Positions 1,914 through 54,300 of a DNA stretch of 64,000 nucleotides are shown here, piece by piece. A program made the translations under genes and the position numbers. The notes below the pieces were generated by a model. It saw only the letters and a list, made by a program, of their open reading frames with translations. It had not been told where the DNA came from and searched no databases. The DNA lies in contig JBCDIS010000003.1 in assembly GCA_038748685.1 (NCBI GenBank), forward strand, positions 30,437 to 94,436, given 5' to 3'. Within the stretch, counting starts at the first letter, position 1. Each line of letters begins with the position of its first letter. The stretch is from Acidobacteriota bacterium (lineage in GTDB: Bacteria > Acidobacteriota > Thermoanaerobaculia > Multivoradales > J023).

Positions 1914-4900
1914 CTATCCTCCGAGTCGCGTGGCGAAGGCGCGGTCGCCGCCTTCGTGGGCAAGCTCCCGGGCGCGGCGGAAGTGACCTTGGGCAGCGTC
2001 GTCCCCCTGGGCTCGGAGCACCTCCCCCGCCAACCGCTCCAGCTCCGCCCGCCAGTAGCCTTCGTCGCTCGATTCCGCCGCCCCGCGGGCCTTCTCCAGC
2101 CATTCCCCAGCGGCCTGGGGGTCGCCGTCCCACAGCTCCAGCTCCGCCCGCTGGGCCAGCATGTAGGTGATCGAGAGCCGGGCTCCGGCGGCGCGGTAGG
2201 CGCCCAGCCCCTCGTCCATCAGCCGCCGCGCCTCCTGGAACGCGCCGCGGTCGGTGGCTTTTCCGTCCTCACCCAGCGAGCCCTGGGCGAGGGCCGCCCC
2301 CTCGAAGAAGCGTCCCTGGGCTAGCCAGAAGAAGCCTTTGCGGGTCGACAGCTCGATCACTTTCTGCGCGTGATGACGGGTCCAGGGAACGTCCCCGCGG
2401 CTCTGGTGCAGGCGGGCGGCGTAGACGTGGGCGAAGGCCAGGCTGTAGCTGTGGCCGACCCGGTGGGCCAGCTCCACGGCCCGTTCGCTGCAGCGGACCG
2501 CGCCGTCGTCCTCGCCGAGGTGCCAAAGCACCAGGGACAGGGCCGCCAGCACCACCACCCCCACGTCCTGGCCCGAGGCCGACGCCAGGGGGGTGCTGCG
2601 ACCGGGGTCGTCGAGGGCGGCGGCCCGCGCCAGGCTGCTCCGCGCCTCGGCCAGATCCCCCCGAAAGTAATAGGCCTGGCCGACGGTGCTGAGGGCGACG
2701 ATCCGCAGTCCGTCGTCCCCCGACGCCTCCGCCAGGCGCACCAGGCGCTCCCCCAGCTCGAGGGCACGCCCCAGCTCGGAGCGCACCAGGTGGAAGGCCC
2801 AAAGGCCCCAGACCACCCAAAACAGCTGCGGGCTCTCCCCCAGGGCGTCGCAGCGGCGACGGGCGCTGGCGAAGCACTCCTCCACCTCCGGGAATGAATA
2901 TCCCCGGGTGACGGAGAGGGCCGCACCCAGGCGGGTATAGAGGGCCAGCTCCCGGGAGCTGCGTACCCCACCGGCTTCCATCTTCCCCGCCGCCGCAAGG
3001 CCCCGACGGAGGTGCTCGATGCCCGCCACGTTGGCGGAACGGGCGATCGCCAACTCCCCCGCCGCCAGCCAGTAGCGGCTGGCGGGGCCCGGGAGCCCGG
3101 CGGCGTCGAAGTGGTGGGCTAGGAGACCCGGATGCCTGGCCGCCACGGCTTGCCGGAGCTCCAGTTGCCGACCGATGCGGGCGTGCAGATCTCGACGCTC
3201 CCGCACCAGGAGGGATTCGTAGGCCGTATCGCGAACCAGGGCGTGCTTGAAGGAGTAGCGGATCTCCTCGCCAGAGCTGCTGCGCAGCAGCAGGCCCGCA
3301 GCCACCAGCCGCTCCAGCTGGGCCCGCAGCTCCCCACCGGTCGTGGAGGACACCTCCGCCAGCAGGTGGATGTCCACCTCCCGGCCCAGCACCGCAGCTT
3401 CCTGGGCCACCCCCTTCGCCGGTCCCATCCGATCGAGGCGGGCCGTCAAAGACTCCCGCAATGTCGCGGGAAGGGCCAATGGGCGCAGGGGCTCCGCCAG
3501 CTCGTACCGTCCTTCCCACGCCACCAGTTGACCGGATTCGAGCAGGGCGCGGGTCAGCTCTTCGACGAAGAGGGGCACGCCATCGGTTTGGGTGACGATC
3601 TGCTCGATCACACCCGACGGCAGCGGACGCCCCTCACCGATCGAAGCGATCAGGCCCTTGACGTCGTCCGGCTCCAGGCCAGCCAGCTCCAGCCGCAGCA
3701 AGTTCGGGCCGTCGGACCAGGGCGGCCGGGCCTCGGGACGGTGGGTGGTCAACAGCAGCAGCGGCGCTTCCGGAACCCGCTCCGCGAGGTCCCCGAGCAC
3801 CTCCAGGCTCATCGGATCGAGCCAGTGCAGGTCTTCCACCAGCAACACGAGCGGCGACCGGTGGGCCGACGCCAGCAGCAGCTCGACAATCAGCTCCCGG
3901 GTCCTGCGTCGCCGCATCTCGGGGGCCAGATCGGAGGGCGGGTAGCGCCCCGCGGCGTCGATCCCCAGCTGCTCCGCCAGGAGTGGGATACCTTCCGCCA
4001 GGGTGGCTTCACCTCCGTCCAGCAGCGTCTCCAGATGCTCCAAACGCTGGGACTCGGGAACCCCGTCATCGAGACCGGCGGCCCGGGCCACCAGCTCCGC
4101 CACGGGCTGAAGCGGGGCGCCCGTTTCGAAGGGGGAGCCCTGCGAGGTCACCCAGCGCGCGCGGGAGGACAGGCTGCCGCGGATCTCGGCGACGAGCCGC
4201 GACTTGCCGATGCCCGGCTCGCCGCCGATCACCACCGCCTGGCCCGCCCCGGCTAGGGCCGATCGGAACCGTTCCTCCACCGCCGCCAGCTCCCGTCCGC
4301 GCGCCAGCAGGGGCCGACGCCGGGAACCGACGGAGCGCGCCCCCTGGACCTCCGCCAACCCGAAGGATTCGGTCTCCCCCGGCAGCCGCACCGGTTCCAT
4401 GGGGCGTAGCATGAAGGTCCGCGCCACCATCTGGGCCGCGGTGTCGCTGGCCACCAAGCTCCCCACGGGGGCGAAGCCCTGCACCGCGATGGCCCGATCC
4501 AGGGTCGCCCCGAGGACCAGCTCGTCCCGATTCGCCACGGCGAGCACGATCCCCTGGCCGGCGTGGAGCCCCGCCCGCATCGCCACCGGTTCGAGGATCC
4601 CGGCGGGCAGAACGTCGTCGATTCGGGCCAGGAGCTCGAGGGCCGCCAACACCGCCCGCTGGGCGTCCTGCTCGTGACTCCGCGGATATCCGAAGCAAAC
4701 CACGACCCGATGCTCCCGCAGGCTCACCAGGTGGCCGCCGTAGCGGTCCACCACCTCCTCCGCCAGGGCACCGTACGCGGGGGCCGCGTCGAGCACCGTC
4801 TCGGCGTCGAGGGGAGCTCCGCCGGGACTGACGAGATCGCAGCACACGACCGAAACCTGTCGCCGTTCCCGCCGGCGCCCGGTGGTGGACGAAGACCCCG

Positions 4901-5975
4901 CCTCCCCGGGGACACTCCTCACCGCTCCATCGAAGGAGCCCGGAACCTTCGTCACGGACGTCGCGGCCGAGGGAAGAACGTCCTGGGCAGAGACCGCGGC
5001 CCCCGGCAGGGTTTCCTCCATTTCGGCGGTGGACTGGAGCTTGGGGACCGAGGCTGTCTGCGCCACCGGAACGGGATAGGCACCGGTGCCGCCGCCCACC
5101 CACCCTTCCGCCACCAACAGCGCCTCCAGCCGCGCCTGCACGGTGGTCGCGTCCGCCGGACGATGCTCAGGCTGCTTCGCCAGGAGATCGTCGATCAGCG
5201 CGGAGAGATCACCAGGGATCCCCGGCGCCACGAGGTGGGCCGGGGGGTGGGGCTCCGTACAGATCCGCTGCAGGGTCCGCACCACCGTCGAACCGCTGAA
5301 GGGCGCGCGGCCGGTCACCATGCGATACAGCAGAGACCCGAGGGAGAAGAGATCGGAGCGGTGATCCAGACGCCCGCCCATCGCCTGTTCGGGGGAGAGG
5401 GCCGAAAGGGTGCCCATGATCTTGCCGTCGACGGTCAGCGAAGGCTCGCTTTCATCGCCGAAGATCCGCTTGGCGAGGCCGAAGTCCAGCAGCTTCGCCC
5501 GCTTCTCCTCCGTCACCATAACGTTCTCGGGCTTGAGGTCCCGATGCAGGATGCCGGCGCCGTGGGCGGTGGCCAGGCCGGCGGCGATCTCCGACGCCAT
5601 CGCGACGGCTTCCCGGGGCGAGAGGGGCCCCTCCTCGAGGAGGTCGTAGAGGGTCCGCCCCACCACCAGCTCCATCACCGACCAGTCGCCGGTCTCGGTC
5701 TCCACCCAGTCGTAGATCTGGACGATGGCGGGGTGGTTCAAACGGGCCACCGCTTTCGCCTCGCGGCGAAACCGCTCGCGGGTGGCGGGATTGGCGATCT
5801 CCGTACGAATGTTCTTGAGGGCGACGTGACGTTCCAGCCGCTCGTCGAACCCGCGGTAGACCTGCCCCATGCCGCCGGCCCCGAGCTGCTTCTCGAGACG
5901 GTAGGGGCCGACCCGGTCTGGCCGCGAGAACAATCCGGTTGAAGAACCTGTGCTGGAATCGGCAGTAGAGCTCAC
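1914..5975 (-). CDS. Ser/Thr protein kinase - adenylate/guanylate cyclase-like - AAA/STAND ATPase - TPR fusion
   Basis: 1353 aa. Kinase motifs GAGGMGQVY, VALK, HRDLKPEN, DFG, SPE. Cyclase-like RRQVSVVCCDLV...CFGYP. Walker A GEPGIGKS, Walker B LLVEDLHW. Helical TPR-like C-terminus. GTG start. Confidence 0.92.
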   Translation of the reverse strand: MSSTADSSTGSSTGLFSRPDRVGPYRLEKQLGAGGMGQVYRGFDERLERHVALKNIRTEIANPATRERFRREAKAVARLNHPAIVQIYDWVETETGDWSVMELVVGRTLYDLLEEGPLSPREAVAMASEIAAGLATAHGAGILHRDLKPENVMVTEEKRAKLLDFGLAKRIFGDESEPSLTVDGKIMGTLSALSPEQAMGGRLDHRSDLFSLGSLLYRMVTGRAPFSGSTVVRTLQRICTEPHPPAHLVAPGIPGDLSALIDDLLAKQPEHRPADATTVQARLEALLVAEGWVGGGTGAYPVPVAQTASVPKLQSTAEMEETLPGAAVSAQDVLPSAATSVTKVPGSFDGAVRSVPGEAGSSSTTGRRRERRQVSVVCCDLVSPGGAPLDAETVLDAAPAYGALAEEVVDRYGGHLVSLREHRVVVCFGYPRSHEQDAQRAVLAALELLARIDDVLPAGILEPVAMRAGLHAGQGIVLAVANRDELVLGATLDRAIAVQGFAPVGSLVASDTAAQMVARTFMLRPMEPVRLPGETESFGLAEVQGARSVGSRRRPLLARGRELAAVEERFRSALAGAGQAVVIGGEPGIGKSRLVAEIRGSLSSRARWVTSQGSPFETGAPLQPVAELVARAAGLDDGVPESQRLEHLETLLDGGEATLAEGIPLLAEQLGIDAAGRYPPSDLAPEMRRRRTRELIVELLLASAHRSPLVLLVEDLHWLDPMSLEVLGDLAERVPEAPLLLLTTHRPEARPPWSDGPNLLRLELAGLEPDDVKGLIASIGEGRPLPSGVIEQIVTQTDGVPLFVEELTRALLESGQLVAWEGRYELAEPLRPLALPATLRESLTARLDRMGPAKGVAQEAAVLGREVDIHLLAEVSSTTGGELRAQLERLVAAGLLLRSSSGEEIRYSFKHALVRDTAYESLLVRERRDLHARIGRQLELRQAVAARHPGLLAHHFDAAGLPGPASRYWLAAGELAIARSANVAGIEHLRRGLAAAGKMEAGGVRSSRELALYTRLGAALSVTRGYSFPEVEECFASARRRCDALGESPQLFWVVWGLWAFHLVRSELGRALELGERLVRLAEASGDDGLRIVALSTVGQAYYFRGDLAEARSSLARAAALDDPGRSTPLASASGQDVGVVVLAALSLVLWHLGEDDGAVRCSERAVELAHRVGHSYSLAFAHVYAARLHQSRGDVPWTRHHAQKVIELSTRKGFFWLAQGRFFEGAALAQGSLGEDGKATDRGAFQEARRLMDEGLGAYRAAGARLSITYMLAQRAELELWDGDPQAAGEWLEKARGAAESSDEGYWRAELERLAGEVLRAQGDDAAQGHFRRARELAHEGGDRAFATRLGG

Positions 5976-6151
5976 CGGCAGAGTCTAGCAGCGGGTCCCC
6001 TCCGGCGGCGGCGCAACCGCCCGTTCATCTACCAGGCACCTGGCGGTTTTCTCTTCAAACCGAATCCCCTGAGCCCACCGCCGCCACGCCCCTTCCCCCG
6101 AACCTCAGGTCCTCCACCCGAGACTTCGTGCCGATAGACTCCCGACGCGCC

Positions 6152-8908
6152 ATGGACGAGACAGCCCCCCCATCCCGCAGCTTCCGTCTGGACGACTGGA
6201 TCGTCCACCCCGCTTTGCACCGCATCGAACGCGGCGACGAGACGGTGCGGCTCGAACCTAAGGTCATGCAGGTGCTCCAAAGCCTGGCGGAGCGCCCCAG
6301 GACTCTAAGGCCCAAGGCCGAGCTCATCCGGTGTGTGTGGGGGAACGCCCACGTCTCGAAGGAGGTGCTGACGAACGCCGTCTGGGAGCTCCGGCGGGCC
6401 CTCGGGGACAAGGCGAAGGCTCCGAAGTACATCGAGACGATTCCCCGTCGAGGGTACCGACTGCTGGTGGACATCGAGGTTCTAGACGAAGACGCCCCGG
6501 CGAACGCTGGGTCAGCGGAGGCTGGTCCGGCGGAGGACCCCGCGTCCAAACCCGGCGAGCCCGAGCCCGGCGAGCCCGAGCCTGAGGAGCCCGAGCCCGA
6601 GGAGCCCGAGCTCAAGGAGACCGAGCCCGAGGTCGAGCAGCCTGAAATCGACGAGCCCGAAACCGACGAGCCCGAGCCCGAGACGCAGGCCGTAGACCCG
6701 GCGGAGCCACCGAAGGATCTACGCGGGGTCTGGATCGCCTCTGCGTTGGTGCTGGCGGGGTTGGCCCTGGGGGCGTCGATATGGCTCGGTCGCTCCCCTG
6801 AAGACAAGGCCCCTGGTGGCCCCGTCGCCGGCACCACCGTCGGCGAGACGGTGGCCCCCCTCCGGCCCGAGGCCGTGACGCCGGAGGAGGACCCGGAGCC
6901 CGGGGAGCCGCCGCCGTTCTGGCGCTTCAAGACCGGCGGCGAGATCTGGTCGTCCCCCGCCGTGGCCGACGGACGGGTAGTCTTCGGCAGCGACGATCAC
7001 CGCCTCTACGCCCTCGACGCGGTGGACGGCCGTGAGCTCTGGCGCTTCGACACCGACGGCCGCATCCGCACCGCCCCGGCGATCCACGACGGCACCGTCT
7101 ACGCTGGTAGCGAGGACGGACACCTCTATGCCTTGGGCGCCGAGGACGGAATCCAGCGCTGGCGGGCGAGGACCCGGATCCGCTCGTCCCCCGTCGTCAA
7201 CGGGGCCGGCACGCGGATCTACTTCGGCGGCTTCGGGGAAAAGATCGGCTGCCTCGACGCCGCCACGGGTGAACTGCTCTGGGCCGTCCCCACCAACGGC
7301 CGGGTCCGCGCCTCGCCGCTGCTCGACGGCCCCCGACTCTACGTCGGCAGCGACGACGGCCACCTCTATGCCCTCGACGCCGGCAGCGGACGGGAGCTCT
7401 GGCGGTTCGAGACCGGCGCCGAGATCGACACCTCCCCCCGCCTCGACGGCGGAGTGGTCTACGTCGGTAGCCACGACGGATACCTATACGCCTTGGACGC
7501 CGGCAACGGGCGGGAGCTGTGGCGCTCCCAGACCGACGAATTCGTCGGCAGCGCCCCCTCGGTCTCCGGTGGCCGGGTCCTCGTCGGCAGCGGCGGCGGC
7601 GGCCTGTACGCCTTCGACGCCCGCAGCGGTATCGAGCTGTGGCGTCTCCAGACCGGGGACTTCGTCCGCTCGACGCCGGTGGTGGACGGCGACGCCGTCT
7701 ACGTGGGTTCCGGCGACCATCACCTCTACGCCGTCGACGCCGCCGACGGCCGGGGCCGCTGGCGCTTCGAGACCGACAGCTGGATCACCGGCTCCCCCGC
7801 CGTCGCCGGGGACATGGTCTACTTCGGCAGTATCGACGGCACCTTCTACGCCGTGCGCACCGACCTGCCGCCGGACGACCCTCCCCCATCGACCCCGCCA
7901 CCCGCCTTCGGGGTGGTGACGGCCCCCTCCTTCCACGACGGCGAGCCAAAGGTACGGTGGCGGTTCGACGTCGGCGGCGGGCTCTACCCTCCGGCCCGGG
8001 TGGCCGGGGACAGGATCTACGTGGGGGGCTCCCGCGATCTCGTGGCCTTGGACGCCGCCGGCGGCCGGGAGCTGTGGCGCTTCAAAACCGGGGATTCGGT
8101 GGACACGCGGCCGGCGGTGGACGGGGAAAGCGTGTACGTCGGCAGCCGCGACCACAACGTCTACGCCGTCGGCGTCGACGATGGCCGGGAGCGCTGGCGC
8201 TTCAAGACCGGCGGCGACGTGATTTCGTTCCCGGCCCTCCACCGGGGCGACGGCCAGCAGGTGATCTTCGGCAGCGGCGACGGCCACGTGTACTCCGTGG
8301 ACACCCACGACGGCCGCGAGCGCTGGCGCTTCGAAACCCACGGCGTGGTCAACGCCGCCCCGGTGATCGACCGCGGGGTCGTGTTCGTGGGCAGCTGCGA
8401 TGAGCATCTCTACGCCCTATCCGCCGACGACGGCCGGGAGCTGTGGCGCTTCCACGCCGACGACTGCATCGTCGCCTCGGCGCTGGTGGACGGCGACGTC
8501 GTCTACGTCGGCGACTCCCGGGGGACGTTCTACGCCGTCGACGGAGCGGTCGGCGGCGTCCGCTGGCGTTTCGAGACCGGCGGCGCCATCTGGTTCTATC
8601 CGGCGCTGGATTTCGGCATGGTCTACTTCGGCAGCGCCGACTACCACCTCTATGCGGTCGACACCACCACCGGCCTCGAACGGTGGCGGTTCGAAACAGG
8701 CAACCGGGTCCTCAGCTCCCCCGCGATCGACCTCGGGGTGCTCTACTTCGGCAGCTACGACCGGCACCTCTACGCGGTGAACGCCGTCAACGGCGAAGAG
8801 CTGTGGCGCCTGCGGACCGGAAGCGCGGTCCACAACGTCGCCCTCGGGGACGGTGTCGTCTACGGCTCGTCGGGGGACAGGCACCTCTACGCCGTCGACA
8901 TCCCCTGA
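6152..8908 (+). CDS. Membrane-anchored one-component regulator: OmpR/PhoB-type wHTH + acidic Pro-Glu linker + TM helix + two 8-bladed PQQ-like (BamB-like) beta-propellers
   Basis: CadC/ToxR-type wHTH (RLEPKVMQVL...LRRALGDKAKAPKYIETIPRRGYRL), a TM segment (VWIASALVLAGLALGASIWLG), and 16 W-x-F-x-T...SSP...GSxDxxLYA repeats counted in two sets of 8. Start ATG 6152 (GTG 6128 alternative). Confidence 0.88.
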   Translation: MDETAPPSRSFRLDDWIVHPALHRIERGDETVRLEPKVMQVLQSLAERPRTLRPKAELIRCVWGNAHVSKEVLTNAVWELRRALGDKAKAPKYIETIPRRGYRLLVDIEVLDEDAPANAGSAEAGPAEDPASKPGEPEPGEPEPEEPEPEEPELKETEPEVEQPEIDEPETDEPEPETQAVDPAEPPKDLRGVWIASALVLAGLALGASIWLGRSPEDKAPGGPVAGTTVGETVAPLRPEAVTPEEDPEPGEPPPFWRFKTGGEIWSSPAVADGRVVFGSDDHRLYALDAVDGRELWRFDTDGRIRTAPAIHDGTVYAGSEDGHLYALGAEDGIQRWRARTRIRSSPVVNGAGTRIYFGGFGEKIGCLDAATGELLWAVPTNGRVRASPLLDGPRLYVGSDDGHLYALDAGSGRELWRFETGAEIDTSPRLDGGVVYVGSHDGYLYALDAGNGRELWRSQTDEFVGSAPSVSGGRVLVGSGGGGLYAFDARSGIELWRLQTGDFVRSTPVVDGDAVYVGSGDHHLYAVDAADGRGRWRFETDSWITGSPAVAGDMVYFGSIDGTFYAVRTDLPPDDPPPSTPPPAFGVVTAPSFHDGEPKVRWRFDVGGGLYPPARVAGDRIYVGGSRDLVALDAAGGRELWRFKTGDSVDTRPAVDGESVYVGSRDHNVYAVGVDDGRERWRFKTGGDVISFPALHRGDGQQVIFGSGDGHVYSVDTHDGRERWRFETHGVVNAAPVIDRGVVFVGSCDEHLYALSADDGRELWRFHADDCIVASALVDGDVVYVGDSRGTFYAVDGAVGGVRWRFETGGAIWFYPALDFGMVYFGSADYHLYAVDTTTGLERWRFETGNRVLSSPAIDLGVLYFGSYDRHLYAVNAVNGEELWRLRTGSAVHNVALGDGVVYGSSGDRHLYAVDIP
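6551..6682 (+). repeat. Imperfect 15-bp coding tandem repeat (about 9 units, PxEPE-type)
   Basis: cccggcgagcccgag x2, cctgaggagcccgag, cccgaggagcccgag, then degenerating units, encoding PGEPE PGEPE PEEPE PEEPE LKETE PEVEQ PEIDE PETDE PEPE. Confidence 0.85.
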
Positions 8909-9106
8909 AAGCCCCGGAGCGGATTGGGGCTCGGCTCGAACCCCGACGGAGCGGCACTTATAGCCAGCGAGCTATGTGTCGAGATCAGGCCACCGCCCCG
9001 TCCCTCGCCATCGGCGCCCGGGGGACGCTCTGACGGGCTCGTCCCTCCGGGAGCAAATCGTCCGCGGCCATCCGTTCGGCGGCCGCGGACGATTCATGCT
9101 GCAAGC

Positions 9107-9448
9107 TCAGATGCAAATCCGCGGGCAGTAGACGCCCGGTGACGGGTTGACCGGCACGCAGCAGAAGTTCTGCCTGTCGAATCGGTAGGTGCACCAAGAC
9201 GAGTTGAAGCTGGAGCAGTCGAGGAGGCGCTGCTCCGGCTGGAAGCCACCGGCCTCCGAGAGGATCTCGACCATCGGGAAGCCGAAGAGGGCGTCGAGGT
9301 CGACCTCCGGCTGGATGAGCTCGGCCTGGGGCTCTATCCACTCGAGCAGGTCGGAGGGCTCGACGGCCTCAGGGCCGTCTTCCGTCGGTTGGGCACCGAC
9401 GGTCATCGGGACGATCAGCAGCAAGAGGACGAGGGCGTAGCGGGTCAT
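9107..9448 (-). CDS. Small secreted precursor: signal peptide + acidic pro-region + C-terminal 6-Cys peptide
   Basis: Start MTRYALVLLLLIVPMTVGA with a strong AAGGAGGT RBS. 113 aa. C-terminal core CSSFNSSWCTYRFDRQNFCCVPVNPSPGVYCPRICI. Confidence 0.8.
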   Translation of the reverse strand: MTRYALVLLLLIVPMTVGAQPTEDGPEAVEPSDLLEWIEPQAELIQPEVDLDALFGFPMVEILSEAGGFQPEQRLLDCSSFNSSWCTYRFDRQNFCCVPVNPSPGVYCPRICI

Positions 9449-9479
9449 GGGACCTCCTTGGTGGTGAGTGCAGCGCTCG

Positions 9480-9560
9480 CGGGATTCCATAATTCGCGAT
9501 ACGACTGGTGTTTCCAAGACATTGCACACCATGTTAATTTTTTTATCTTTCATCAAGCGG
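9480..9560 (-). promoter_or_regulatory. AT-rich putative promoter region of the Cys-rich peptide gene
   Basis: AT-rich patch (ttaatttttttatctttcatcaag) in a GC-rich context. On the minus strand TTGGAA-17 nt-AATTAT is a loose sigma70-like pair. Confidence 0.4.
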
Positions 9561-9815
9561 CTGGAGCGTGTCAACACGGGGCGGCACACCGAAGACGGAT
9601 CGCGTGTTCACGACCTCGGTGGGTTTCGGGCGTGGGGGCGGAGCTTGCCCCCGCCCGTCTCGGCGAGATCGCCGATACTTCAAATCCGCGGGAAGCTGGA
9701 CCACCGCTCCGCTGACCTTGGAAAGCCACCACACGGTTCAGGTTCGAGGAACCCGCCGCGTCCCGGCGTCGTCCCGCCGCCCTGCCCGGTCGGTCCGACG
9801 CTGCTCCTATCGGGT

Positions 9816-11012
9816 TTAAACGAGGCGCTGCTCAACGTCGGCGAAGGCCCGCGCCATCCGCTCGGCGCCGCCGTCCGCCGCCAGCTCATCGAGGCGAAGG
9901 GTCGCTAGGGCGGCGATCGCCGCCCCCTGGAGGCGGGGTTCCCGCGCCGGGGCGTCGCCGCCGGTTGGTGCGCCGAAGCGCCCGTCGTCGAAGGCCTGCA
10001 GCGACTCCGCCGCCCGCTTCACCAGGGTTTGGAGGACCCGGAACGCCCCGTCCGACAGCGGCGGGTCGCCGCGGTAGAGATCGAGGCGGCCGCCGGCGCG
10101 GTAGGTCGGATAGTCCTCGAGGCCGATGAAACGGAGGAACCAGTCGGCCCGGTAGTGGCCCAGGGCGGCGACGATGCCGGCGTAGTCGGCGATGAGCTCG
10201 TCGAGGAGATTGTTGCGCATGGAGCCGAAGAGACGACGGGTGAAGTAGTGGGCACACTCGTGATCCCGCCGGATCTTGAGGGACGCCTCCCGCCAGGCCC
10301 CGTCGTCGAGCCCCAGGTCTTCTGCCCGAACCGCGCTGTAGGGGCCGTCGCTGAGTAGCACGAACCGGTCCTGGAACAGCTCCTTGCGCTGGCGGATTGC
10401 GGCGAACGCCTCCCGCCAGGTGGGGGCATCCCGTTCCTCCTCGGGCTGCGCCTCGTACCGTTCCCGCAGCTCCCGGATTCGGAACCAGTTGTTGTATCCG
10501 GAGACCATCAGGGCCCCCATCGAGTCCGGGATCTCCGCCGGCTCGTTGCGACGGCCGAGGGCCCGCGCCAGGGTGACGAAGTCCTCCCTCCGGCGCATCA
10601 CCAGCACCGGCACGTGGCCCGCGAGGCTCCGGTAGAGGAATAGCTCGACCCGATCCGGGTCTTCGAGGTCGAGCCCCGTGGCGCTCTCCAGGGTGGACGG
10701 ATCCGCGCCGCTCAGGGTCGCCGCGAGGTAGCCGTCGGAACGGCTGATGCCTTCGCGGATCGGAAAGCTGAGCTGGGGCAAATGGCGTCGCAGGACTCCG
10801 TAGGCGCCCTCCGCGTCCCCCTCCTCCACCCACCGGCGCCAGGTGTCGACGAAGGGCTCGTCGTCCAGGGGCAGATCCGGCTGCCCGTCGAGGGCCTTCA
10901 GGTCGAAGTGGTTGCGGTTGTACTCCAGCAGCTCGTCGACCTCGTCGCCGACGGCGCCGGCCGCGGCGATCTCCGCCGCCCAGGACGCTTCTTCTGATGT
11001 GGACGTCATCAT
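9816..11012 (-). CDS. Cytoplasmic HExxH-motif protein (gluzincin-like putative metalloprotein, uncharacterised family)
   Basis: 398 aa, GAGGGAG RBS. RDHECAHYF followed about 17 residues later by DELIADY. No signal peptide. Confidence 0.75.
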   Translation of the reverse strand: MMTSTSEEASWAAEIAAAGAVGDEVDELLEYNRNHFDLKALDGQPDLPLDDEPFVDTWRRWVEEGDAEGAYGVLRRHLPQLSFPIREGISRSDGYLAATLSGADPSTLESATGLDLEDPDRVELFLYRSLAGHVPVLVMRRREDFVTLARALGRRNEPAEIPDSMGALMVSGYNNWFRIRELRERYEAQPEEERDAPTWREAFAAIRQRKELFQDRFVLLSDGPYSAVRAEDLGLDDGAWREASLKIRRDHECAHYFTRRLFGSMRNNLLDELIADYAGIVAALGHYRADWFLRFIGLEDYPTYRAGGRLDLYRGDPPLSDGAFRVLQTLVKRAAESLQAFDDGRFGAPTGGDAPAREPRLQGAAIAALATLRLDELAADGGAERMARAFADVEQRLV

Positions 11013-42812: not shown

Positions 42813-45800
42813 TCAGTGGAGGTCCGAGCATCCGAAGTTTCCCGGATCCGCATCTTCGGTATCCCGGCAGACTTGAGTCCAACTATTGCCGCCGAGCACG
42901 ACGACTCGAATGCGAACCGGGTTGGTGCGGTACTCCACGTTGTAGATCGGAGCCGGACAGGACATGCTCATCTTTTGTCTCGCACCCAACTCACAGCCGT
43001 TGGGGTGCCTCGGGCCGTAGACCGTGTTGATCTTTCGATTGATGCCGATCTTGTCGCTCCCGTAGATGTTCGGTACACCGAAGGTGTCCTCCCTTACGGT
43101 CCAGACGCCCCCGGTCACGATGTTGTTGGCATTGAACTCCGGGATGGGTGAACCGGAGTAGTGGCAGCCGTCGTAAAAGGCGCTCCACCGTTCGCTCACC
43201 GTTCGGTTGGCGTAGATCCCATCCTCGGGAAGAACGACCGCGTTGAAGATGGCGGTGTCGACCGACGGCGACTCCCAGAGCTCGTAAAGGCTCACCTCGT
43301 CATTGGCCACGGGACAGGCGATGGCGTCCGCTGAGCAGGCGGCTCCGCTGGAGGCGGTCGCCTGCACTTGGATCGACGCGGAGTCGCGAGCGCTAGTGTT
43401 TTCCGCCAGCCGGATCTCCGCCGAATAGTCCGACAACGACACCGACTCCCCCGGACCGAGGGTGACTTCCCGACTCGCCGGCGCGAAGCTCGCGTCGGGG
43501 GTCCCACCCGTCTTGCTAAGCTCAACCGTGTAGGTGCACGACTCGGTCGATTCATTCCTGATCGTCCCGGTGAGGCCTTCCGTCGCAAAGTACGACGGGT
43601 TGGTATAAGACCGGTCCGGCTGGACCTTGACGCTCTCTAGGGTGGCTGTACAGCGGCACTCGTCTGTGCACACGGGCGTCGGCGTCGTCTTGCCCACTTC
43701 GGGCTCGAAGACGCTGAAGCTCTCCTGAAAATAGAAGCCGTCGAACGTTGTCCCGGTGGCCCGCATCTCGATCGGTTGCTCGCAGCAGTCGGTCTGGGTC
43801 ACCGTCGCGGGGGTGCGGCCTTCCACCGGCGGACCTTGGGCCACCGCTTCGGCGCAGGATCCGCCTGTGATGGTAGTGGTGGTGGTCGTTCCAGAGCTGT
43901 TGGCCGCCGACCCGGCGCCGGTGCAGTAGTTGACCTGGATCGCCACACCCGGGGATCCCGGAACTTCCGCCGCAAAGACTCCTTCGAGGCAGAAGACCGG
44001 ATACGTGAAGCCGGTGAAGAAGTCGTACCACCAGGAGATCGTCAGATCGACCCGGAGGTAGAACGACAGGACCAGACCTCCGATGGGGACTTGCTGCCCC
44101 AGGTTCAGGCCCTGGAGGATGGCGTCCCCCTCCGCGCCGGTGTCCGGGTCGAAGAGGATCCCCTCCGTATGGTGGAACTCCACGAGCTGAAAGCGGAACC
44201 GGAACAGCACCAGGGCCAGTCGCTCGGCCTCGGACAGCTCCCCACCCGATTCCAGATCGGTCGAGACGCTACCGCCGGAGAGCCGCCGAAGCATGGCCTC
44301 GTCCATCTTCTGGACCGTGTCCATCGCCTGCCGCAGCTCCGCTTCGTCCAAAGACTCGATGGCGGCCAGCGCCTCCGTTACCTCCGCGTCCGGGGGATCA
44401 TCCCCCGCAGCCAGGGCCTTGAGGCGGGCCTTCAAAGCATCCCCAGGTACCCCTGATAAAGCACCTTCGCTCGGTTCACGGATATCACCCGCCGCCACCG
44501 ACCGCATCTGCATCGGCCGGCCTTGGAGGCGGCTCGCCACCTCCCGCACCGCAGGGGCCTGGAGGTAGATAGAAGGCACCGCCGCCCCCCGCTGAGCGCC
44601 GAGGCGCTCCCGGAGACCCGCCGTGACCTCACGGCTTTCGAGGGTCGAGCGCCCCGCACCCACCACCTGAATCGGTAGCCGTATCTGCTGGCCGTTCTTG
44701 CTCACCACGATCTCCGCCGGTCCGACGCTCGACGGCGCACGGTAGCGGCCGGAAAGGCGGTCGTCCGCCGTATTCACCAGGCTCAGGATCTGCCCGCGGG
44801 TGACGCTCACCGTGGCACCTTGCAGGTTATGACCCACCACCGCCAGCAGGTAGACCTTGCCTGCTTCGGGCTGGCCCGGCGACCACAGGTCCACCAAGGG
44901 CCCCTGGGGCAGCACCCGCAGCGGCTCCGCGTCGGAGCCCTGGCTGTTCTCCGCCACCAGGTTGTGGAAGTCCTCGACGTTAGTGTCCGTAGCGTCCACT
45001 TCCACCCGCATCGACGTCCCCGCGGAATTCACGCTCAGCACCCGAGCCGTCGGGAACGACCTCGGTGCCGCACCTTCCGGCGGATCCACCTGGGCGAAGG
45101 ACACCCCCGTTCCACTGAGGTTCGTGCCGGTTACCGTCACCGTGGTCCTGCGGCCATTGGTGATCCGCTCTGGGGTGATATCCGTGATGTCAGGCTCCCC
45201 CACCACCACCGTGCTCACCGTGCCCGACAGGTTCATCAGGTACGGATTCGGCACCGCCGGATCGTTGTGCCAGATCTTCAGCACCGCCGCGAAGCTGCCC
45301 TCCGTCGACGTATCCAGCCGGGCAGCAATCGTGTCCTGCTGGCCCGGGGCCAAAGGCGAGACCAGCGTCCCAGCCCAGCTGAAGGCGTTGCCCTGGGTGT
45401 TCTGCACCTCCACGTTGGTGGGGGAATGGACCAGGACCAGGTTCCCCGCCCCCGAGGCGGCGGTGTTCTTCACCTCGATGTTCCTGCCCACCAGATTGTT
45501 GGTGCCGCTGTTTGGCTCCACCGAGCCCCAGCTCAACGACCCGTTGTGGGAGATCGGGGCGCCGGAGCCCTCGGACACCGCCATCCGCGGCGGGTCGAGG
45601 GAACCGACGGTCGCCTGGAGGTTGATCCGCAGGGGCCGCGGACGCACCGGATCGCTGTGCCATAGCCTCAGCTGGGCCTCGAAGACCCCCGCCTGGGTGG
45701 TGTCCAGCCGCACCGCGAAGGAATCCTCCTCCCCCGGCTGCAGCGGCGAGTCCAGGACGCCGACGATGCTGAACTGGGCATCCCCGACGATCTCGACATT

Positions 45801-48746
45801 GGACGGCGATCCCTCCAGCACCAGAGGCGAAGCACCCGCCGACGCGCCGTTGCGCACCGTCAGCGGCTCGTCCAGGTGAATGCCGCCGGCCCCCGGGTCC
45901 ACCGTGCCCCAATCGACCACACCGTTGTGGGGAAGCCCCGAGGCTCCGTTGCGCACCTCCAGCTTGGGCAGGGGCCGGTCGGTGGTGCTGAAGTTCAGGT
46001 CGTAGTTCTGCCAGTGCGTCTTGTTGAGGGCGAAGTCCCGAACCCAAAGGGCGATGTCGTTGGCCGGGAACTCACCGAAGCTGGCTTCGGGGCGCACCGT
46101 GAAGGTGACCGTGCGCCGATCGCCGACGAGGGACGTCGCGCAGCCCACCAGGGTCACCGTGCCCGGGTTGTGGGCGGTCGGGTGCTTCGATGCGAAGCCG
46201 CCCCCCTGGCAGGGCACCCGGTCCGCCGCCCACTGGTAGCCCAGGCTCTGGTCGCGCCAGGAGAAGTAGCCCCTGCGGTTGGCGGAGTTGCTGCCTTGGT
46301 GGTTGATCAGCGCCCGCATCTCCCGAACGCCGCTGCCGGTATCCGTCGCCGCGGCGGTGATCCCGTAGCTGGTGCCATCGCCGATGGACCAGTCCAGACC
46401 AGACACCGCCAGGGAGGTTTGCACCGGCTTCGTAGGGTCGACCCGGTACGCTCCGCTCCACGTCCCCACTCGACCGGCGCGGTCGCGGCCGCAGAGATAG
46501 AGGACGTTGTCCCCTTCGGGGGTGTCCAGGCTGTCCCCCGAAGAGAACGCCGTGCCATTGGAGCAAGAGGCGTTGGTGGGGGCGTTCCAACGGTAGCGGG
46601 CCACCGCGAGGCCCGTATTGACGCCGGCCCCCTGGCCGCCGGCGTCGTCCGCGGAGAGGGTCAGGTCCCGATCCCGGTACCAGCCGCTGGAGGCGTTGGT
46701 GGCGGAGACCCGCGGATCGTGGCGATCGATGCGCACGTAGCGCGGATCGTTCCAGGCTCCCCACGTGCCGTTGGTGTTCTTGGCGCGGAACCAGTAGGCC
46801 CGGCGGAAGCCGTCGGAGGGCAGGTTCGTGCCGCTCACCGTGTACGAGGTACCGCCGTCGAGGGTCATGTTGAACTCGCAGCCGGCGAATCCACCGGTCG
46901 AATCTTCGCTGCGACAGATCTGATACCCGTCGATGCCCGAAGGATCCGTCGCCGGGGTGACCGTGGCGACGAAGGCTCCGGTCACCCAACACTGGTCCCC
47001 CTCCACCAGGCCGCAGCTCACCGAGGTGGGTCCGGGGGCTGTGGGGCCGCCGCCGTCGACCCGGTACTGGCCGCTCCACTGCGCCACCCGGCCCACCCGA
47101 TCACGGGCGCAGAGGTAGAGCACGTTGTCCCCCTGGGGGGCCTCCAGGGTCGAGCCGGCGGAAATCTCGGAACCCTGGGAGCAGCCCGAGTTGAGGGGCG
47201 TATTCCACCGGTAGCGGACCCTCAGGAGTCCCGAATTCGCCCCCGCACCGGCGGTCGTATCCGCCGCCGAGACGATCGCCGTGCTGCTGGCGAACCAGTG
47301 GCTCGATGCCCCCGACGCCGAAACGGTGGGGGGATGGCGATCCACCCGCACGAAGCTGGCCCAATTCCACGGCCCCCACTGGCCGGCGTTGTCTCGGGCG
47401 GCCCACCAATAGGAGCGCCGGAAGCCGTCCGACGGCAGATGGCTGCCGCTCACCGTGTAGGACGTCCCCGCGTCGAGGCTCATGTTGTGCTCACAGCCGG
47501 CGAAGCCGCCGCTCGAATCCTGGCTGCGGCACAGCTTGTACGCCGCGATCCCCGAGCCCGCGTCGGTGGCCGGAGTTACGGAGGCGACGAAGCCGCCACC
47601 CACCCAGCAGCTGCCGTCGGAGCTGGTGTGGGCGCAGGGCACCGAGGTGTTGCCCGGCGCGGTGGGGGGTGTGGTGTCCACCCGATATCGGCCATTCCAA
47701 TGTTGCACACGCCCCACCCGATCCCGGGCGCACAGGTACAGGCGATGGTCCCCCTCCGGCGCCGTGAGGGTGGCGCCGGGGCTGGTGACCGTACCGCCGG
47801 TGCAGGTCGAGCCGAGGGCCGAGCCCCAGCGGTAGCGCACCTCCGCGAGACCGGAGTTGGCGGCGGCGCCGGCGGTGGCGTCGGCGGCGGAGATCACCGC
47901 CGTCGAGCTGGACACCCAGTTGGAGGACGTCCCGGAGGCCGACACCGTCGGCCCGTGGCGGTCCACCCGCACGTAGCGGGGGGAATTCCAGACCCCCCAG
48001 TTGCCGACCCTGTCCCGGGCGGCGAACCAGTAGGCGCGCCGGAATCCGTCCGACGGCAGGTGGCTCCCACCAATCGTGTAGGAGGTCCCCGCGTCGTAGC
48101 TGATGTCGTGCTCGCAGCCGGCGAAGCCGCCGGCGGAGTTGTGACTACGGCACAGCCGGTAGGAGCCGACGCCGGAGCCGGCGTCGGTGGCGGGGGTCAC
48201 GGAGACGGAGAAGCTCCCCTGGACCCAGCAGTCGCCCCCCGCGGTGTAGCTGCAGCCGACTTGCGTGGCACCGGGGGCCGTGGGCCCGCGGGTGTCGCCG
48301 TAGACATAGACTTCCGGATTCGCCCCCCAGCTGGTGCAGGCGTTGGCGCCGTCGCAGGCGCTCCAGTAGTAGGCCCTGCGCAGGCCGTCGGAGGGCACGT
48401 GGGATCCGCCAACGGTGAAGGTCGACCCGGTGTTTCCGGAGAGCATGTAGTCGCAGCCCCCCCATCCCGGGGTGTCGTTGCTGCGGCAGATCCTGAAGTG
48501 GTGCGCCCCAGGGGACGACGTCGAGATCGAAAACGACGAGCCGACCCAGCATTTTCCACCCACCACGGCGCCGCAGGACGGCGTCCCCTGGGTGGGCACC
48601 GGCGGCACCGCGGCGACGACCGGGGCCGCCATGACGAGGGCTGCGGCAACGGAGGCCGCCAGCAGAAGCAGCGCCCCCGGGAGGGCCGAGGGGCGCCTTG
48701 GCGCAGGGGGATTCGATCTCGTAGAACGCTTCGGGGGTCGTCGCAT
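42813..48746 (-). CDS. Giant secreted Cys-rich repeat protein, copy 1 (1977 aa)
   Basis: Signal peptide, 3 x ~207-aa FN3-like/Ig-like modules, an Ig-like domain, 2 choice-of-anchor-D/ASH-like domains, 2 IPT/TIG-like domains, an acidic helical linker, a beta-rich core, and a variable C-terminal domain. Confidence 0.9.
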   Translation of the reverse strand: MRRPPKRSTRSNPPAPRRPSALPGALLLLAASVAAALVMAAPVVAAVPPVPTQGTPSCGAVVGGKCWVGSSFSISTSSPGAHHFRICRSNDTPGWGGCDYMLSGNTGSTFTVGGSHVPSDGLRRAYYWSACDGANACTSWGANPEVYVYGDTRGPTAPGATQVGCSYTAGGDCWVQGSFSVSVTPATDAGSGVGSYRLCRSHNSAGGFAGCEHDISYDAGTSYTIGGSHLPSDGFRRAYWFAARDRVGNWGVWNSPRYVRVDRHGPTVSASGTSSNWVSSSTAVISAADATAGAAANSGLAEVRYRWGSALGSTCTGGTVTSPGATLTAPEGDHRLYLCARDRVGRVQHWNGRYRVDTTPPTAPGNTSVPCAHTSSDGSCWVGGGFVASVTPATDAGSGIAAYKLCRSQDSSGGFAGCEHNMSLDAGTSYTVSGSHLPSDGFRRSYWWAARDNAGQWGPWNWASFVRVDRHPPTVSASGASSHWFASSTAIVSAADTTAGAGANSGLLRVRYRWNTPLNSGCSQGSEISAGSTLEAPQGDNVLYLCARDRVGRVAQWSGQYRVDGGGPTAPGPTSVSCGLVEGDQCWVTGAFVATVTPATDPSGIDGYQICRSEDSTGGFAGCEFNMTLDGGTSYTVSGTNLPSDGFRRAYWFRAKNTNGTWGAWNDPRYVRIDRHDPRVSATNASSGWYRDRDLTLSADDAGGQGAGVNTGLAVARYRWNAPTNASCSNGTAFSSGDSLDTPEGDNVLYLCGRDRAGRVGTWSGAYRVDPTKPVQTSLAVSGLDWSIGDGTSYGITAAATDTGSGVREMRALINHQGSNSANRRGYFSWRDQSLGYQWAADRVPCQGGGFASKHPTAHNPGTVTLVGCATSLVGDRRTVTFTVRPEASFGEFPANDIALWVRDFALNKTHWQNYDLNFSTTDRPLPKLEVRNGASGLPHNGVVDWGTVDPGAGGIHLDEPLTVRNGASAGASPLVLEGSPSNVEIVGDAQFSIVGVLDSPLQPGEEDSFAVRLDTTQAGVFEAQLRLWHSDPVRPRPLRINLQATVGSLDPPRMAVSEGSGAPISHNGSLSWGSVEPNSGTNNLVGRNIEVKNTAASGAGNLVLVHSPTNVEVQNTQGNAFSWAGTLVSPLAPGQQDTIAARLDTSTEGSFAAVLKIWHNDPAVPNPYLMNLSGTVSTVVVGEPDITDITPERITNGRRTTVTVTGTNLSGTGVSFAQVDPPEGAAPRSFPTARVLSVNSAGTSMRVEVDATDTNVEDFHNLVAENSQGSDAEPLRVLPQGPLVDLWSPGQPEAGKVYLLAVVGHNLQGATVSVTRGQILSLVNTADDRLSGRYRAPSSVGPAEIVVSKNGQQIRLPIQVVGAGRSTLESREVTAGLRERLGAQRGAAVPSIYLQAPAVREVASRLQGRPMQMRSVAAGDIREPSEGALSGVPGDALKARLKALAAGDDPPDAEVTEALAAIESLDEAELRQAMDTVQKMDEAMLRRLSGGSVSTDLESGGELSEAERLALVLFRFRFQLVEFHHTEGILFDPDTGAEGDAILQGLNLGQQVPIGGLVLSFYLRVDLTISWWYDFFTGFTYPVFCLEGVFAAEVPGSPGVAIQVNYCTGAGSAANSSGTTTTTTITGGSCAEAVAQGPPVEGRTPATVTQTDCCEQPIEMRATGTTFDGFYFQESFSVFEPEVGKTTPTPVCTDECRCTATLESVKVQPDRSYTNPSYFATEGLTGTIRNESTESCTYTVELSKTGGTPDASFAPASREVTLGPGESVSLSDYSAEIRLAENTSARDSASIQVQATASSGAACSADAIACPVANDEVSLYELWESPSVDTAIFNAVVLPEDGIYANRTVSERWSAFYDGCHYSGSPIPEFNANNIVTGGVWTVREDTFGVPNIYGSDKIGINRKINTVYGPRHPNGCELGARQKMSMSCPAPIYNVEYRTNPVRIRVVVLGGNSWTQVCRDTEDADPGNFGCSDLH
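46437..48293 (-). repeat. Three tandem coding repeats of 618-621 bp in giant protein 1
   Basis: Unit boundaries at 48293, 47675, 47054 and 46436. Each unit contains CRS...GGFAGC, LPSDGFRR and C(A/G)RDRxGRV. Confidence 0.92.
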
Positions 48747-51320: not shown

Positions 51321-54300
51321 TCAGTTGCGGGTGGGTGTCGTAACGCCGTCACGGGTGACGGCCATGCCGGAAGACCTGACGTCCATGATCACAGTGTGTC
51401 TGGTGTAGATGGGATGGCCCTCCCAAGAGCAGTTCATGCCCATGGCTTGCCGTCCCCTCACCTGGCAGGGTGCCCGACCGCGGAAAACGTAGTATTCGTC
51501 GAACTCCCGACCACCCGCCGTGCCCACCGCGCCAATCTCGTCGGGGAGGTTGAAGAGGTTGGAATCCACAATCTTCCACATCCCGCCCCGGATCCAGTTA
51601 CCGTTGTGGATCCTGTCGATGGCGGATCCCTGGAACCAGCAGCCGTCGACGACATTATCCGCGGCTTCTTCGATGTCACGACCTGTGAAGTCGGGCCCGA
51701 AGGGGGTCACCGCCATGTCGAAGACCGCCAGATCGCCGACGATCTGGGCCCAGCCCCGGAACTCCGTAATCTCATCAATGGGCAGGATGCAGGCCATCTG
51801 CTCGACGTTTCCGCCCATGGTCATGGGCGGCCCACCTCCGGTCTGCTGGGGTCTGGAGGACACCTCGAGCTTGATCTTGGCGTCGTCCCGCGCCGGGGTC
51901 GACGTCGGAACCGAAACCTTGACCCCCAGGTCCTGCTGGACACCAGGTTGTAGGGTGATCTGTCCGGAGGACGGGCTGAAGCTCAGCGTTGGGCTTCCTC
52001 CGCTCTTCGAGACCTCCCAATCGTAGATGCAGGCTTTGTTGGAGGTGTTTTTGATCGTCGCGGTCAGCGCCACGTTGCTGTCACCTGGTTTCAGGATCTT
52101 TTCTTCCTCTAGAACCACTCGACCACCGCATCCGGTGCACTGCTCCGCAGGTCTCGCCGTCCCCGCTTCGGGGTTGTTGACGTTGAAGTTCTGCTGGAAG
52201 AAGAACCCCTGGAAGGTCGTCCCCAAGGCCTGGAGGCCGATGGGCTGCTCGCAGCAGTCGTTCTGGGTCACCGTGGCGAAGCCGCGGCCGTCGATCGGCG
52301 GACCGTCGTCGGCGGCCTCGGCGCAGTCCCCACCGCCGAACGTGGTGCTCGTGGTGGTGCCGGAGCTGTTGGCGCTGCCGCCGAAGCCGGTGCAGTAGTT
52401 CACCTGGATCGCCACGCCGGGGGTGCCGGGGATCTCCGAGGCGAAGATCCCTTCCAGGCAGAAGATCGGGTACGTGAACCCGCTGGTGAAGTCGTACCAC
52501 CAGGAGATCGTCAGATCGACCCGCAGGTAGAACGACAGCACCAGACCGCCGATCCGCACCTGGTCCCCCAGGCCCAGCCCCTGGAGGATCGCATCCCCCT
52601 CGGCGCCGGTGTCCGGATCGAAGAGGATCGCCTCCGTGTGATGGAACTCCACCAGTTTCCAGCGGAACTGGAACAGGATGAAGAACGCACGCTCCACAGC
52701 CGAGAGCTCTCCGTCCTCGAGGTCCGCCGCCCGGATCGCCGCGGCGTCGAGCTTCTGGACCTGCTCCAGGGCCTCCCGGAGCTCCGACTCCTCCATCGAC
52801 TCAATCACCTGGAGCGCCTCCTGGACATCCTCCGGCGGCGGCTCTTCACCCGCCGCCAGCGCCCGGAAACGCGCCTTCAGGGAATCGCCGGGGATCAACA
52901 TCCGGGCACCCTGGCTCGGTTCCTGGATCTCCCCACCCTTGAGGGCGCTCATCTGCATCGGCTGGCCATTGAGGCGGCTCGCTGCCTCCCGCACCGAAGG
53001 CGCCTGGATGTAGACCGAGGGAACCGATGCCGCCTGCTGGGCGCCGAGGCGCTCCTTGAGGCCCGCCGTCACCTCACGGGTTTCGAGGGTCGAACGGCCC
53101 GCACCCACCACCTGGATCGGTAGACGCACCTGCTGGCCGTTCTTGGTCACCACGATCTCCGCCGGGCCCGGGGTCGACGGCGCACGGTAGCGGCCGGAGA
53201 GACGGTCGTCCGCCGTGTTCACCAGGCTCAGCATCTGACCCCGGGTCACGCTCAGGGACGCCCCCTGCAGGTTGTGACCCGCCACCGCCAGCAGGTAGAC
53301 CCTGCCGGTCTCCGGCTGACCCGGCGACCACAGGTCCACCAGCGGGCCCTGGGGCAGCACCCGAAGCGGCTCCGCGTCGGCGCCCTGGCTGTTCTCCGCC
53401 ACCAGGTTGTGGAAGTCCTCGACGTTGGTGTCGGTGGCGTCCACCTCCACCTGCATCGATGTCCCCGCAGGGTTCACGCTCAGCACCCGCGCCGTCGGGA
53501 ACGACCGCGGGGCCGCGCCCTCCGGCGGATCCATCTGGGCGAACGACACCCCCGTTCCGCCGAGGTTCGTACCCCGCACCGTCACCGTGGTCTTGCGGCC
53601 GTTGGTGATCCGCTCCGGGGTGATGTCCGTGATGTCCGGCTCCCCCCCCACCACCGTGCTCACCGTGCCCGATAGGTTCATCAGGTACGGATTCGGCACC
53701 GCCGGATCGTTGTGCCAGATCTTCAGCACCGCCGCGAAGCTGCCCTCCGTCGACGTATTCAGCCGTGCGGCGAAGTTGTCCTGCTGACCCGGGGCCAGGG
53801 GAGAAACCAGCGTCCCCGCCCAGCTGAAGGCGTTGCCCTGGGTGTTCTGCACCTCCACGTTGGTGGGGGAGTGCACCAGGACCAGGTTCCCCGCCCCTGA
53901 AGCGGCGGTGTTCTTCACCACGATGTTCTTACCCACCACGTTGTTGGTGCCGCTGTTCGGCTCCACCGAACCCCAGCTCAACGAGCCGCTATGGGAAATC
54001 GGGGGATTCGACCCGTTGCGCACCTCCAGCCGCGGCGGGTCGGTGGACTCCACCGTCGCCCTCAGGTTGATGCGCAGGGGCAGCGGACGGTTCGGGTCGC
54101 TGTGCCAGATCTGGATCTGACCGTTGAAGGTCCCCGCCTGCGCGGTGTTCAGCCGCACCACAAAGGTGTCCTGCTGACCCGGCTGCAGGGGCGAGTCCAG
54201 GGTCCCGGAGAGGCTGAACCTCGAAGAGCCCGTGATCTGGACGTTGGACGGGGTTCCCACCAGGATCAGCGGCGAGGAGCCCGCCGGCGCCGCGTTGCGC

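Follow-up and report, generated by a model that had tools for sequence, protein, structure and literature searches.

The gene described here lies on the minus strand of the window, by which is meant the whole 64,000-nucleotide stretch of DNA that was analysed and whose source is a marine metagenome. It starts with an ATG at position 9448, stops at 9107-9109, and encodes a protein of 113 amino acids with six cysteines at its C-terminal end. The features of the gene and of its product are collected in Table 1. On the same strand, 367 nt upstream of it, a gene encodes a DUF7005 protein, and on its other side the gene converges on one for a CadC-like/PQQ-propeller protein. Genes for OEP/TolC, AcrB, a TonB-dependent receptor, and an OMP beta-barrel protein, all found in the window, indicate a diderm host.

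Table 1. Features of the six-cysteine gene and its product, in window coordinates.
Feature	Position	Strand	Details and basis
Complete CDS, exported Cys-rich mini-protein	9107..9448	minus	113 codons + TGA; translation, GC3 0.91, homologues
Shine-Dalgarno AAGGAGG	9453..9459	minus	4 nt 5' of ATG; read directly
AT-rich upstream region, candidate promoter	9500..9580	minus	perfect TTGACA at 9569-9574; GC 0.555-0.585
GC-rich stem-loop, then AUUUG	9056..9094	minus	~12 nt past stop; misses strict terminator pattern
Sec/SPase-I-type signal peptide MTRYALVLLLLIVPMTVGA, predicted cut before QP	9392..9448	minus	residues 1-19; by inspection
Acidic Pro/Glu-rich linker, predicted disordered	9227..9391	minus	residues 20-74; 14 D/E, 1 R; unconserved
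Conserved core LLD-C-x7-C-TY-x7-CC-x6-PG-x2-CP-x-I-C-I	9110..9226	minus	residues 75-113
Strict six-Cys core, C-x7-C-x9-CC-x10-C-x3-C-I	9110-9217	minus	residues 78-113, CSSFNSSWCTYRFDRQNFCCVPVNPSPGVYCPRICI

The surroundings hold several further genes of interest. The DUF7005 protein (9816-11012, minus strand) matches its Pfam family with E = 4.8e-139, contains the HExxH-like motif DHECAHYF, and has close relatives in Thermoanaerobaculia and in many cyanobacteria; it may be an uncharacterised metallohydrolase. The CadC-like gene (6128-8908, plus strand) encodes a protein of 926 aa in which a CadC-type winged-helix regulator is joined to PQQ/BamB-like beta-propeller repeats, and is arranged divergently from a gene for a 1353-aa Ser/Thr kinase-AAA_16-TPR protein (1914-5975, minus strand). 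Two giant open reading frames of 1977 and 2183 aa (42813-48746 and 51321-57872, both on the minus strand, GC3 0.85-0.89) are essentially devoid of Pfam domains, the sole match being a weak one to CIA30 in the second.

The strong ribosome-binding site and the AT-rich upstream region noted in the original prediction are both found at the gene, the former as the AAGGAGG placed just before the ATG and the latter as 200 nt with a GC content of 0.555-0.585, against 0.673 for the window as a whole. Consensus scans around the open reading frame returned no full sigma-70-like promoter and no canonical terminator. The RNA of positions 9035-9106 folds with -42.3 kcal/mol (z = -5.67), a stability that none of 200 shuffled sequences equals, and the stem-loop that it contains is probably the end of transcription or a stabiliser of the transcript. 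The GC content at the three codon positions is 0.63/0.42/0.91, with a third-position value like that of the flanking genes (0.86-0.91). The frame could be extended upstream to a GTG at 9589, but the GC3 of that extension is only 0.62, and the start is therefore placed at 9448. Stretches of 60 aa or more between two stops number 565 in the window, and just 2 of them have at least six cysteines within their last 36 residues; no paralogue of the protein is encoded within these 64 kb. The gene was found in none of the RNA runs searched. For its homologue P0002, one metatranscriptome contig covers only the last 48 nt together with the convergent msrB gene, and is ambiguous. The open reading frame is a genuine gene.

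The product consists of MTRYALVLLLLIVPMTVGA, a segment that begins with QPTEDG and ends with PEQR, the tripeptide LLD, and CSSFNSSWCTYRFDRQNFCCVPVNPSPGVYCPRICI. Three elements of this layout are as originally read from the DNA. By inspection, the first 19 residues show the basic n-region, the hydrophobic core (a 12-residue peak with a mean Kyte-Doolittle value of 2.98), and the V-G-A site of a Sec signal, and all family members have an equivalent N-terminus. The acidic region of about 55 aa spans residues 20-74, with 14 Asp/Glu against a single Arg, and the cysteine spacing of the 36-aa core matches residues 78-113 exactly. The reading of the acidic stretch as a pro-region ending in EQR-LLD, on the other hand, does not hold for the family. 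Among eight members measured, the length of the linker varies from about 14 to 56 residues, with about 56 or more reached in the family as a whole, and neither R74 nor the EQR motif is conserved in the 12-member alignment. Only a few linker residues are left in the short forms, three proteins of 66, 67, and 73 aa in which the signal peptide runs almost straight into the core. The acidic linker is best read as a dispensable spacer, predicted to be disordered, and not as a family-wide propeptide. Genes for such short forms can be easily missed or over-called by annotation: those at L107:5188-5421 and L113:23-256 are embedded in another, long open frame that continues into a gene for a phosphoketolase, and it is the frame-specific GC3 that marks the small open reading frame as the coding one.

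Relatives of this protein are few. A word-indexed protein search with the single sequence against 5.8 billion proteins returned the query alone, and an exact-sequence lookup among contigs gave no match. An exhaustive phmmer search of 1.84 billion representatives retrieved six small homologues (P0002, P0005, P0006, P0008, P0009, and P0010) of 96-117 aa, with E-values from 4e-12 to 1.6e-4. Four long proteins from the same search (P0003, P0004, P0007, and P0011) were discarded as spurious; P0003 and P0007, the two that were read in sequence, are repeat or low-complexity proteins. A scan of one genome per GTDB species with a back-translated DNA pattern gave 18 matches, seven of which were accepted by an HMM of the core, while the 11 matches from other phyla were rejected by it; the final profile search added P0012-P0015. 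A looser DNA pattern yielded, among the matches listed for genome contigs, only false positives and known members, and its five pattern matches on viral contigs included no real member.

In total, the family comprises about 14 distinct proteins of 66-146 aa, that is, the window protein and some 13 others. The homologue search for a conserved cysteine frame, which the original prediction had put forward as a check, came out in its favour, as these relatives, about 13 in number, keep all six cysteines. The window protein scores 85-86 bits with the core HMM, alongside all other members, and shows the layout that defines the family: a Sec-type signal followed by C-x7-C-[TG]-Y-x7(8)-CC-x8-10-C-P-x-[ILV]-C-x-stop. 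Six of the seven genome matches accepted by the HMM are labelled Acidobacteriota or Thermoanaerobaculia. The seventh belongs to an unclassified MAG that is, on the evidence of its DUF7005 gene (62% identity), also the closest genome to the window. One relative occurs in a salt-marsh sample. As judged from the sequences recovered, this is a rare, patchy, and fast-diverging family whose named hosts are Acidobacteriota only.

One of the members, a paralogue of 73 aa, is encoded at L086:2737-2958, in tandem just upstream of the gene for P0009 (109 aa; L086:3019-3348). The same tandem of a short and a longer form is also present in L087 and L088, so that the arrangement is kept in three independent samples; both of its members carry an extra cysteine pair, and a gene for an ECF sigma factor lies convergently downstream.

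In the 12 aligned members, C78, C86, Y88, C96, C97, C108, P109, and C112 are invariant, while T87, P104, and A106 are nearly so. The chain ends exactly one residue past the last cysteine in all members. Most pairs of cores are saturated at synonymous sites, but dN/dS is below 1 in every pair with an estimable dS, and the closest informative pair (L098 and L111) has a dS of 1.47, a dN of 0.13, and an omega of 0.09. The core is under purifying selection. Position 110 is the second most variable of the core (2.65 bits and seven residue types among the ten cores with canonical spacing), and it is flanked by the invariant C108-P109 on one side and by I/L111-C112 on the other. Across 14 members it is occupied by R, N, N, M, R, N, R, K, L, K, S, A, G, and A. 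What reads CPRI in the window protein is C-P-x-[ILV]-C for the family.

P0002, P0009, and the L086 paralogue have two extra cysteines each, at matching positions, one located 8-10 residues before Cys I and the other 3-4 residues before the CC pair. Such a coincidence is what a fourth disulfide would produce, and it speaks for an oxidised fold. P0005, P0009, P0010, and P0013 have a single, apparently unpaired linker cysteine 8-15 residues past the predicted signal cleavage site, which makes their cysteine count odd and could form an intermolecular disulfide or be the remnant of a lost module. P0014 (146 aa) and P0015 (135 aa) contain a second, N-terminal six-Cys segment (RPCCTDC...CARVCLFSC) before the linker and the core; this segment has no Pfam match, and in P0013 (L111:795-1247) it has decayed to one cysteine. 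Two additional ideas about the core were discarded. An N-glycosylation sequon, N-S-S before Cys II, is missing from that site in five of the 12 aligned members, and an inhibitor of carboxypeptidases acting through its C-terminal tail finds no support in a last residue that varies among I, V, L, A, P, E, and R.

An AlphaFold2 (AF2) model, which rests on an alignment of seven sequences, assigns a pLDDT of 87-94 to the core and of 50-58 to the N-terminal part and linker. A helical turn at residues 78-81 is followed in it by two strands, at 88-91 and 96-99, with one more, a short one, at 111-112; the first two strands lead to a predicted hairpin between Cys II and Cys III/IV. Modelling the core alone, with an alignment that left out the L086 paralogue, gives a mean pLDDT of 79 and an unchanged secondary structure. 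The structure prediction that had been proposed as a check thus returned a compact model, and the core is predicted with confidence to be compact. The loop between Cys V and Cys VI has three residues in all members.

None of the resources consulted holds a counterpart of this domain. Pfam has no family for the eight members searched at E-values up to 10, NCBIfam gave no relevant match for 12 members, and the best hit of the PDB sequence and profile search (E = 0.59) is spurious. Foldseek, a tool that is weak on domains so small, reached at best E = 5.4, with no knottin among its hits. Literature searches did not find a description of the family. The six-Cys family is new and lacks a counterpart in Pfam, NCBIfam, and the PDB, and the window protein is very probably a real, exported, disulfide-rich member of it. 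Of the original view of an undescribed disulfide-rich secreted peptide, the undescribed, signal-bearing, and disulfide-rich small protein stands, whereas the knottin assignment, the squash-type reactive loop, and the pro-region are not supported.

Besides the gene itself, its genetic context was compared across the family. At about 11 distinct loci there is no recurring neighbour gene, and no RiPP-modifying enzyme, ABC exporter, or small immunity-like gene is found at them; this argues that the family has no RiPP enzyme, transporter, or immunity partner. A link with DUF7005 was rejected because 80 other loci encoding that neighbour hold no homologue. Peptidases are also found close to some members (M36, S58, M61, S9, and DUF7005 with its HExxH), but they differ in family and in distance, which fits chance in peptidase-rich genomes. 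Directly upstream of P0002, L089:8096-9910 (plus strand) encodes a membrane protein of 604 aa with several passes, whose match to Glyco_transf_22 (GT-C-like) is weak and below threshold, an intriguing neighbour given the frequent N-S-S in the core, although the sequon is unconserved in the family. Redox- or copper-type genes lie near three members: a double SCO1/SenC gene, divergent, beside P0006 (L083:4031-5392 / L093:6280-7641), a convergent MsrB gene adjoining P0002 (L089:10344-10946), and DsbD_N and AhpC-TSA genes 5-8 kb from P0008 (L081:1700-4492). They are absent at other loci, and their presence may be due to chance.

The mechanism that is favoured here would start with the export of the pre-protein by the Sec pathway to the periplasm of a diderm, Thermoanaerobaculia-like marine bacterium, where signal peptidase would remove residues 1-19. 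The C-terminal 36 residues would then fold compactly and be locked by three disulfides made by periplasmic oxidases, with a structure predicted to consist of a short helical turn past Cys I, a beta-hairpin from Cys II to the paired cysteines, and, at the C-terminus, one short strand. Since the genes stand alone and lack partners, the mature protein would act alone, as a stable binding module on a non-self or extracytoplasmic target. That the target would be non-self is suggested by the rarity and patchy spread of the family, by its local duplication, and by its variation at a few surface positions. In the inhibitor model that follows, the rigid, invariant C-P-x-[ILV]-C loop would display the hypervariable residue 110 as the determinant of specificity.

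The specific function preferred for such a module, by analogy with pacifastin-type inhibitors, is tight-binding inhibition of a hydrolase or protease that is secreted or resides in the periplasm, an assignment that is possible but doubtful. There is no consistent link to any protease gene, and the residue that would serve as "P1" is N, S, A, or G in seven of 14 members, which is odd for inhibitors of serine proteases. In addition, a housekeeping protector of the periplasm would be expected to be less rare and less patchy than this family, and Sec export by itself leaves a protein inside the outer membrane. Taken as a whole, the exported disulfide-locked core plus the inhibitor guess is a tentative proposal, likelier to fail in some part than to hold entire. 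A bolder form of it may be entertained with due scepticism: the 36-residue core would represent an unseen, non-knottin disulfide-rich fold that arose in Acidobacteriota and works as a stand-alone inhibitor of the canonical type or as a toxin against eukaryotes or competitors, and residue 110, together with the turn of the hairpin, would determine its specificity.

A toxin or antimicrobial role has also been considered in its own right. The protein would be aimed at other organisms such as fungi, protist grazers, or competing bacteria; in the manner of the enterotoxin STa, it would leave the cell beyond the outer membrane and would thus need no immunity gene. The order of signal, spacer, and C-terminal six-Cys segment, ending one residue past the last cysteine, suits this role, as do the solitary gene, the patchy spread, the tandem duplication, the variable loops, and the TolC-like OEP gene of the window. 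However, the core has a net charge of no more than 0 to +2 and lacks an amphipathic cationic character, there is no match to Enterotoxin_ST or any other toxin family, and export partners and immunity genes are absent nearby, all of which makes a toxin rather unlikely.

By analogy with CBM1 or hevein, the core could instead be a free-standing mini-module for carbohydrate binding or adhesion. Most of the 36-residue cores contain 5 to 9 aromatics, aromatic or hydrophobic residues occupy positions 85, 88, 90, 101, and 107, and the host lineage is rich in secreted hydrolases. The short forms, however, keep only 2-3 aromatics, no CBM family is matched, and none of the members found is fused to a catalytic domain, so that such a module seems improbable.

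The knottin reading comes from the original prediction, which saw an inhibitor cystine knot in the cysteine order and the reactive loop of squash trypsin inhibitors in the CPRI tetrapeptide. In canonical knottins the core is a small sheet, with a hairpin in the Cys V-VI loop, while CPRI of the squash inhibitors, in general form CP[RKL]I, is located between Cys I and Cys II. The 12 aligned members do have the order C-C-CC-C-C within the knottin size range of about 30-50 residues, and R or K occupies position 110 in five of 14 members. The disulfides of knottins pair I-IV, II-V, and III-VI, the last one threading the ring, and the KNOTTIN database lists knottin-like bacterial sequences, none of which has an experimental structure (PMC5753296). 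Against a bacterial knottin that inhibits trypsin through a squash-type loop, there is no match in sequence or fold, with Pfam silent for eight members at E up to 10 and nothing in the PDB below E = 0.59. The V-VI loop, with its three residues, is too short for the canonical hairpin, which is predicted in II-III instead, and the CPRI motif is placed between Cys V and Cys VI, where R110 is unconserved, R being one of eight residue types in 14 members. Membership of the core in the knottins or the squash-type trypsin inhibitors cannot be demonstrated, and this reading is very unlikely. A better candidate for a knottin-like module in Acidobacteriota is found elsewhere: a Thermoanaerobaculia MAG (DASZEM010000017.1; L027:8522-10015, plus strand) encodes a 498-aa trypsin-like peptidase (Pfam Trypsin_2) that ends in CLSKGAVCKTNSQCCSHTCRKKTKTCK, a tail with the canonical ICK-type spacing C-x6-C-x5-CC-x3-C-x6-C.

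The cysteines might also serve as thiols, reduced or cycling, in a periplasmic metal or redox peptide, to which the SCO1/SenC gene at P0006, the DsbD_N and AhpC-TSA genes at P0008, and the MsrB gene at P0002 would lend a context. Such neighbours differ by locus and are absent from the window and from most other loci, the extra cysteines come in pairs, as disulfides would, no His or Met is conserved, and the model of the core is compact and confident; a thiol peptide is accordingly hard to credit. Even less can be said for a RiPP precursor with enzymatically modified cysteines, such as a Sec-signal bufferin-type peptide or a radical-SAM substrate. The layout of the protein, with a Cys-rich C-terminal core after a signal or leader, is in its favour, but neither the window nor about ten other loci hold an MNIO/DUF692, radical-SAM, cyclodehydratase, or dedicated protease or exporter gene, and no NCBIfam precursor model matches any of 12 members, which leaves this option extremely improbable. 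Finally, a chance open reading frame in GC-rich DNA, which the negative RNA search and the very small number of homologues might suggest, is contradicted by a family that is conserved in MAGs of marine, salt-marsh, and further origin, with dN/dS below 1, and also by the GC3 of 0.91, the strong RBS, and the 3' hairpin, and deserves next to no credence.

The exported, disulfide-locked binding module that is favoured here would matter for several reasons. Genetically encoded mini-proteins rich in disulfides are valued because they make ultra-stable scaffolds and yield inhibitors and toxins. To our knowledge, the characterised families are nearly all from animals, plants, and fungi, with few bacterial examples, and the secreted small proteins of Acidobacteriota, a phylum that is hard to culture, are essentially unstudied. 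The six-Cys family combines a predicted compact fold with natural variation concentrated at a few surface positions. Should the core fold as predicted and bind a target, it would provide a new scaffold that can be made in the bacterial periplasm, and would show for the first time what small secreted proteins do for Acidobacteriota; a non-knottin fold with an inhibitor or toxin role would likewise amount to a new bacterial mini-protein scaffold. If the protein is inert, the family would still offer a clean case of a lineage-restricted orphan that standard annotation misses or calls hypothetical.

The protein can be compared with several known systems. With knottins, the core has in common its roughly 36 residues, the C-C-CC-C-C order, secretion, a small beta structure, and probably three disulfides, and it departs from them in its loops of 7/9/0/10/3 residues and in the place of the predicted hairpin. 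With the squash trypsin inhibitors (PF00299), it shares the CPRI tetrapeptide, whose Pro and Ile/Val/Leu are conserved in the six-Cys family; here the motif is C-terminal, no profile is matched, and the basic or Leu P1 that squash inhibitors maintain is not kept, R being one of eight residue types. Bufferin-type precursors (DUF2282 / 6-12-Cys classes) combine a Sec signal with a Cys-rich periplasmic peptide in diderms. The six-Cys family resembles them in its signal, its conserved Cys-rich peptide, and its diderm host, and differs in having no MNIO/DUF692 or partner genes and no match to their family models.

The heat-stable enterotoxin STa of Escherichia coli (PF02048) is made with a Sec signal, a spacer, and a C-terminal six-Cys peptide that is oxidised in the periplasm, from a solitary gene without an immunity gene. 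The window protein shows the same order of segments, the same end one residue past the last cysteine, and a solitary gene without an immunity gene as well, and would likewise be oxidised in the periplasm, whereas the sequences are not similar, the cysteine frame is another one, the core is twice as long, and the short members of the family (66-73 aa) lack a pro-region. Pacifastin-type inhibitors (PF05375), in turn, are three-stranded mini-domains of about 35 residues with six cysteines, and their variable P1 is located in the short loop that connects Cys V and Cys VI. These arthropod proteins differ from the family in their cysteine spacing, with C5-T-x3-C6 where C5-P-x-I-C6 is found here, and no profile match connects the two. 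What the window protein would share with them is a six-Cys core with a variable residue in the short loop between its last two cysteines, a likeness that is an analogy of mechanism only, and not of homology.
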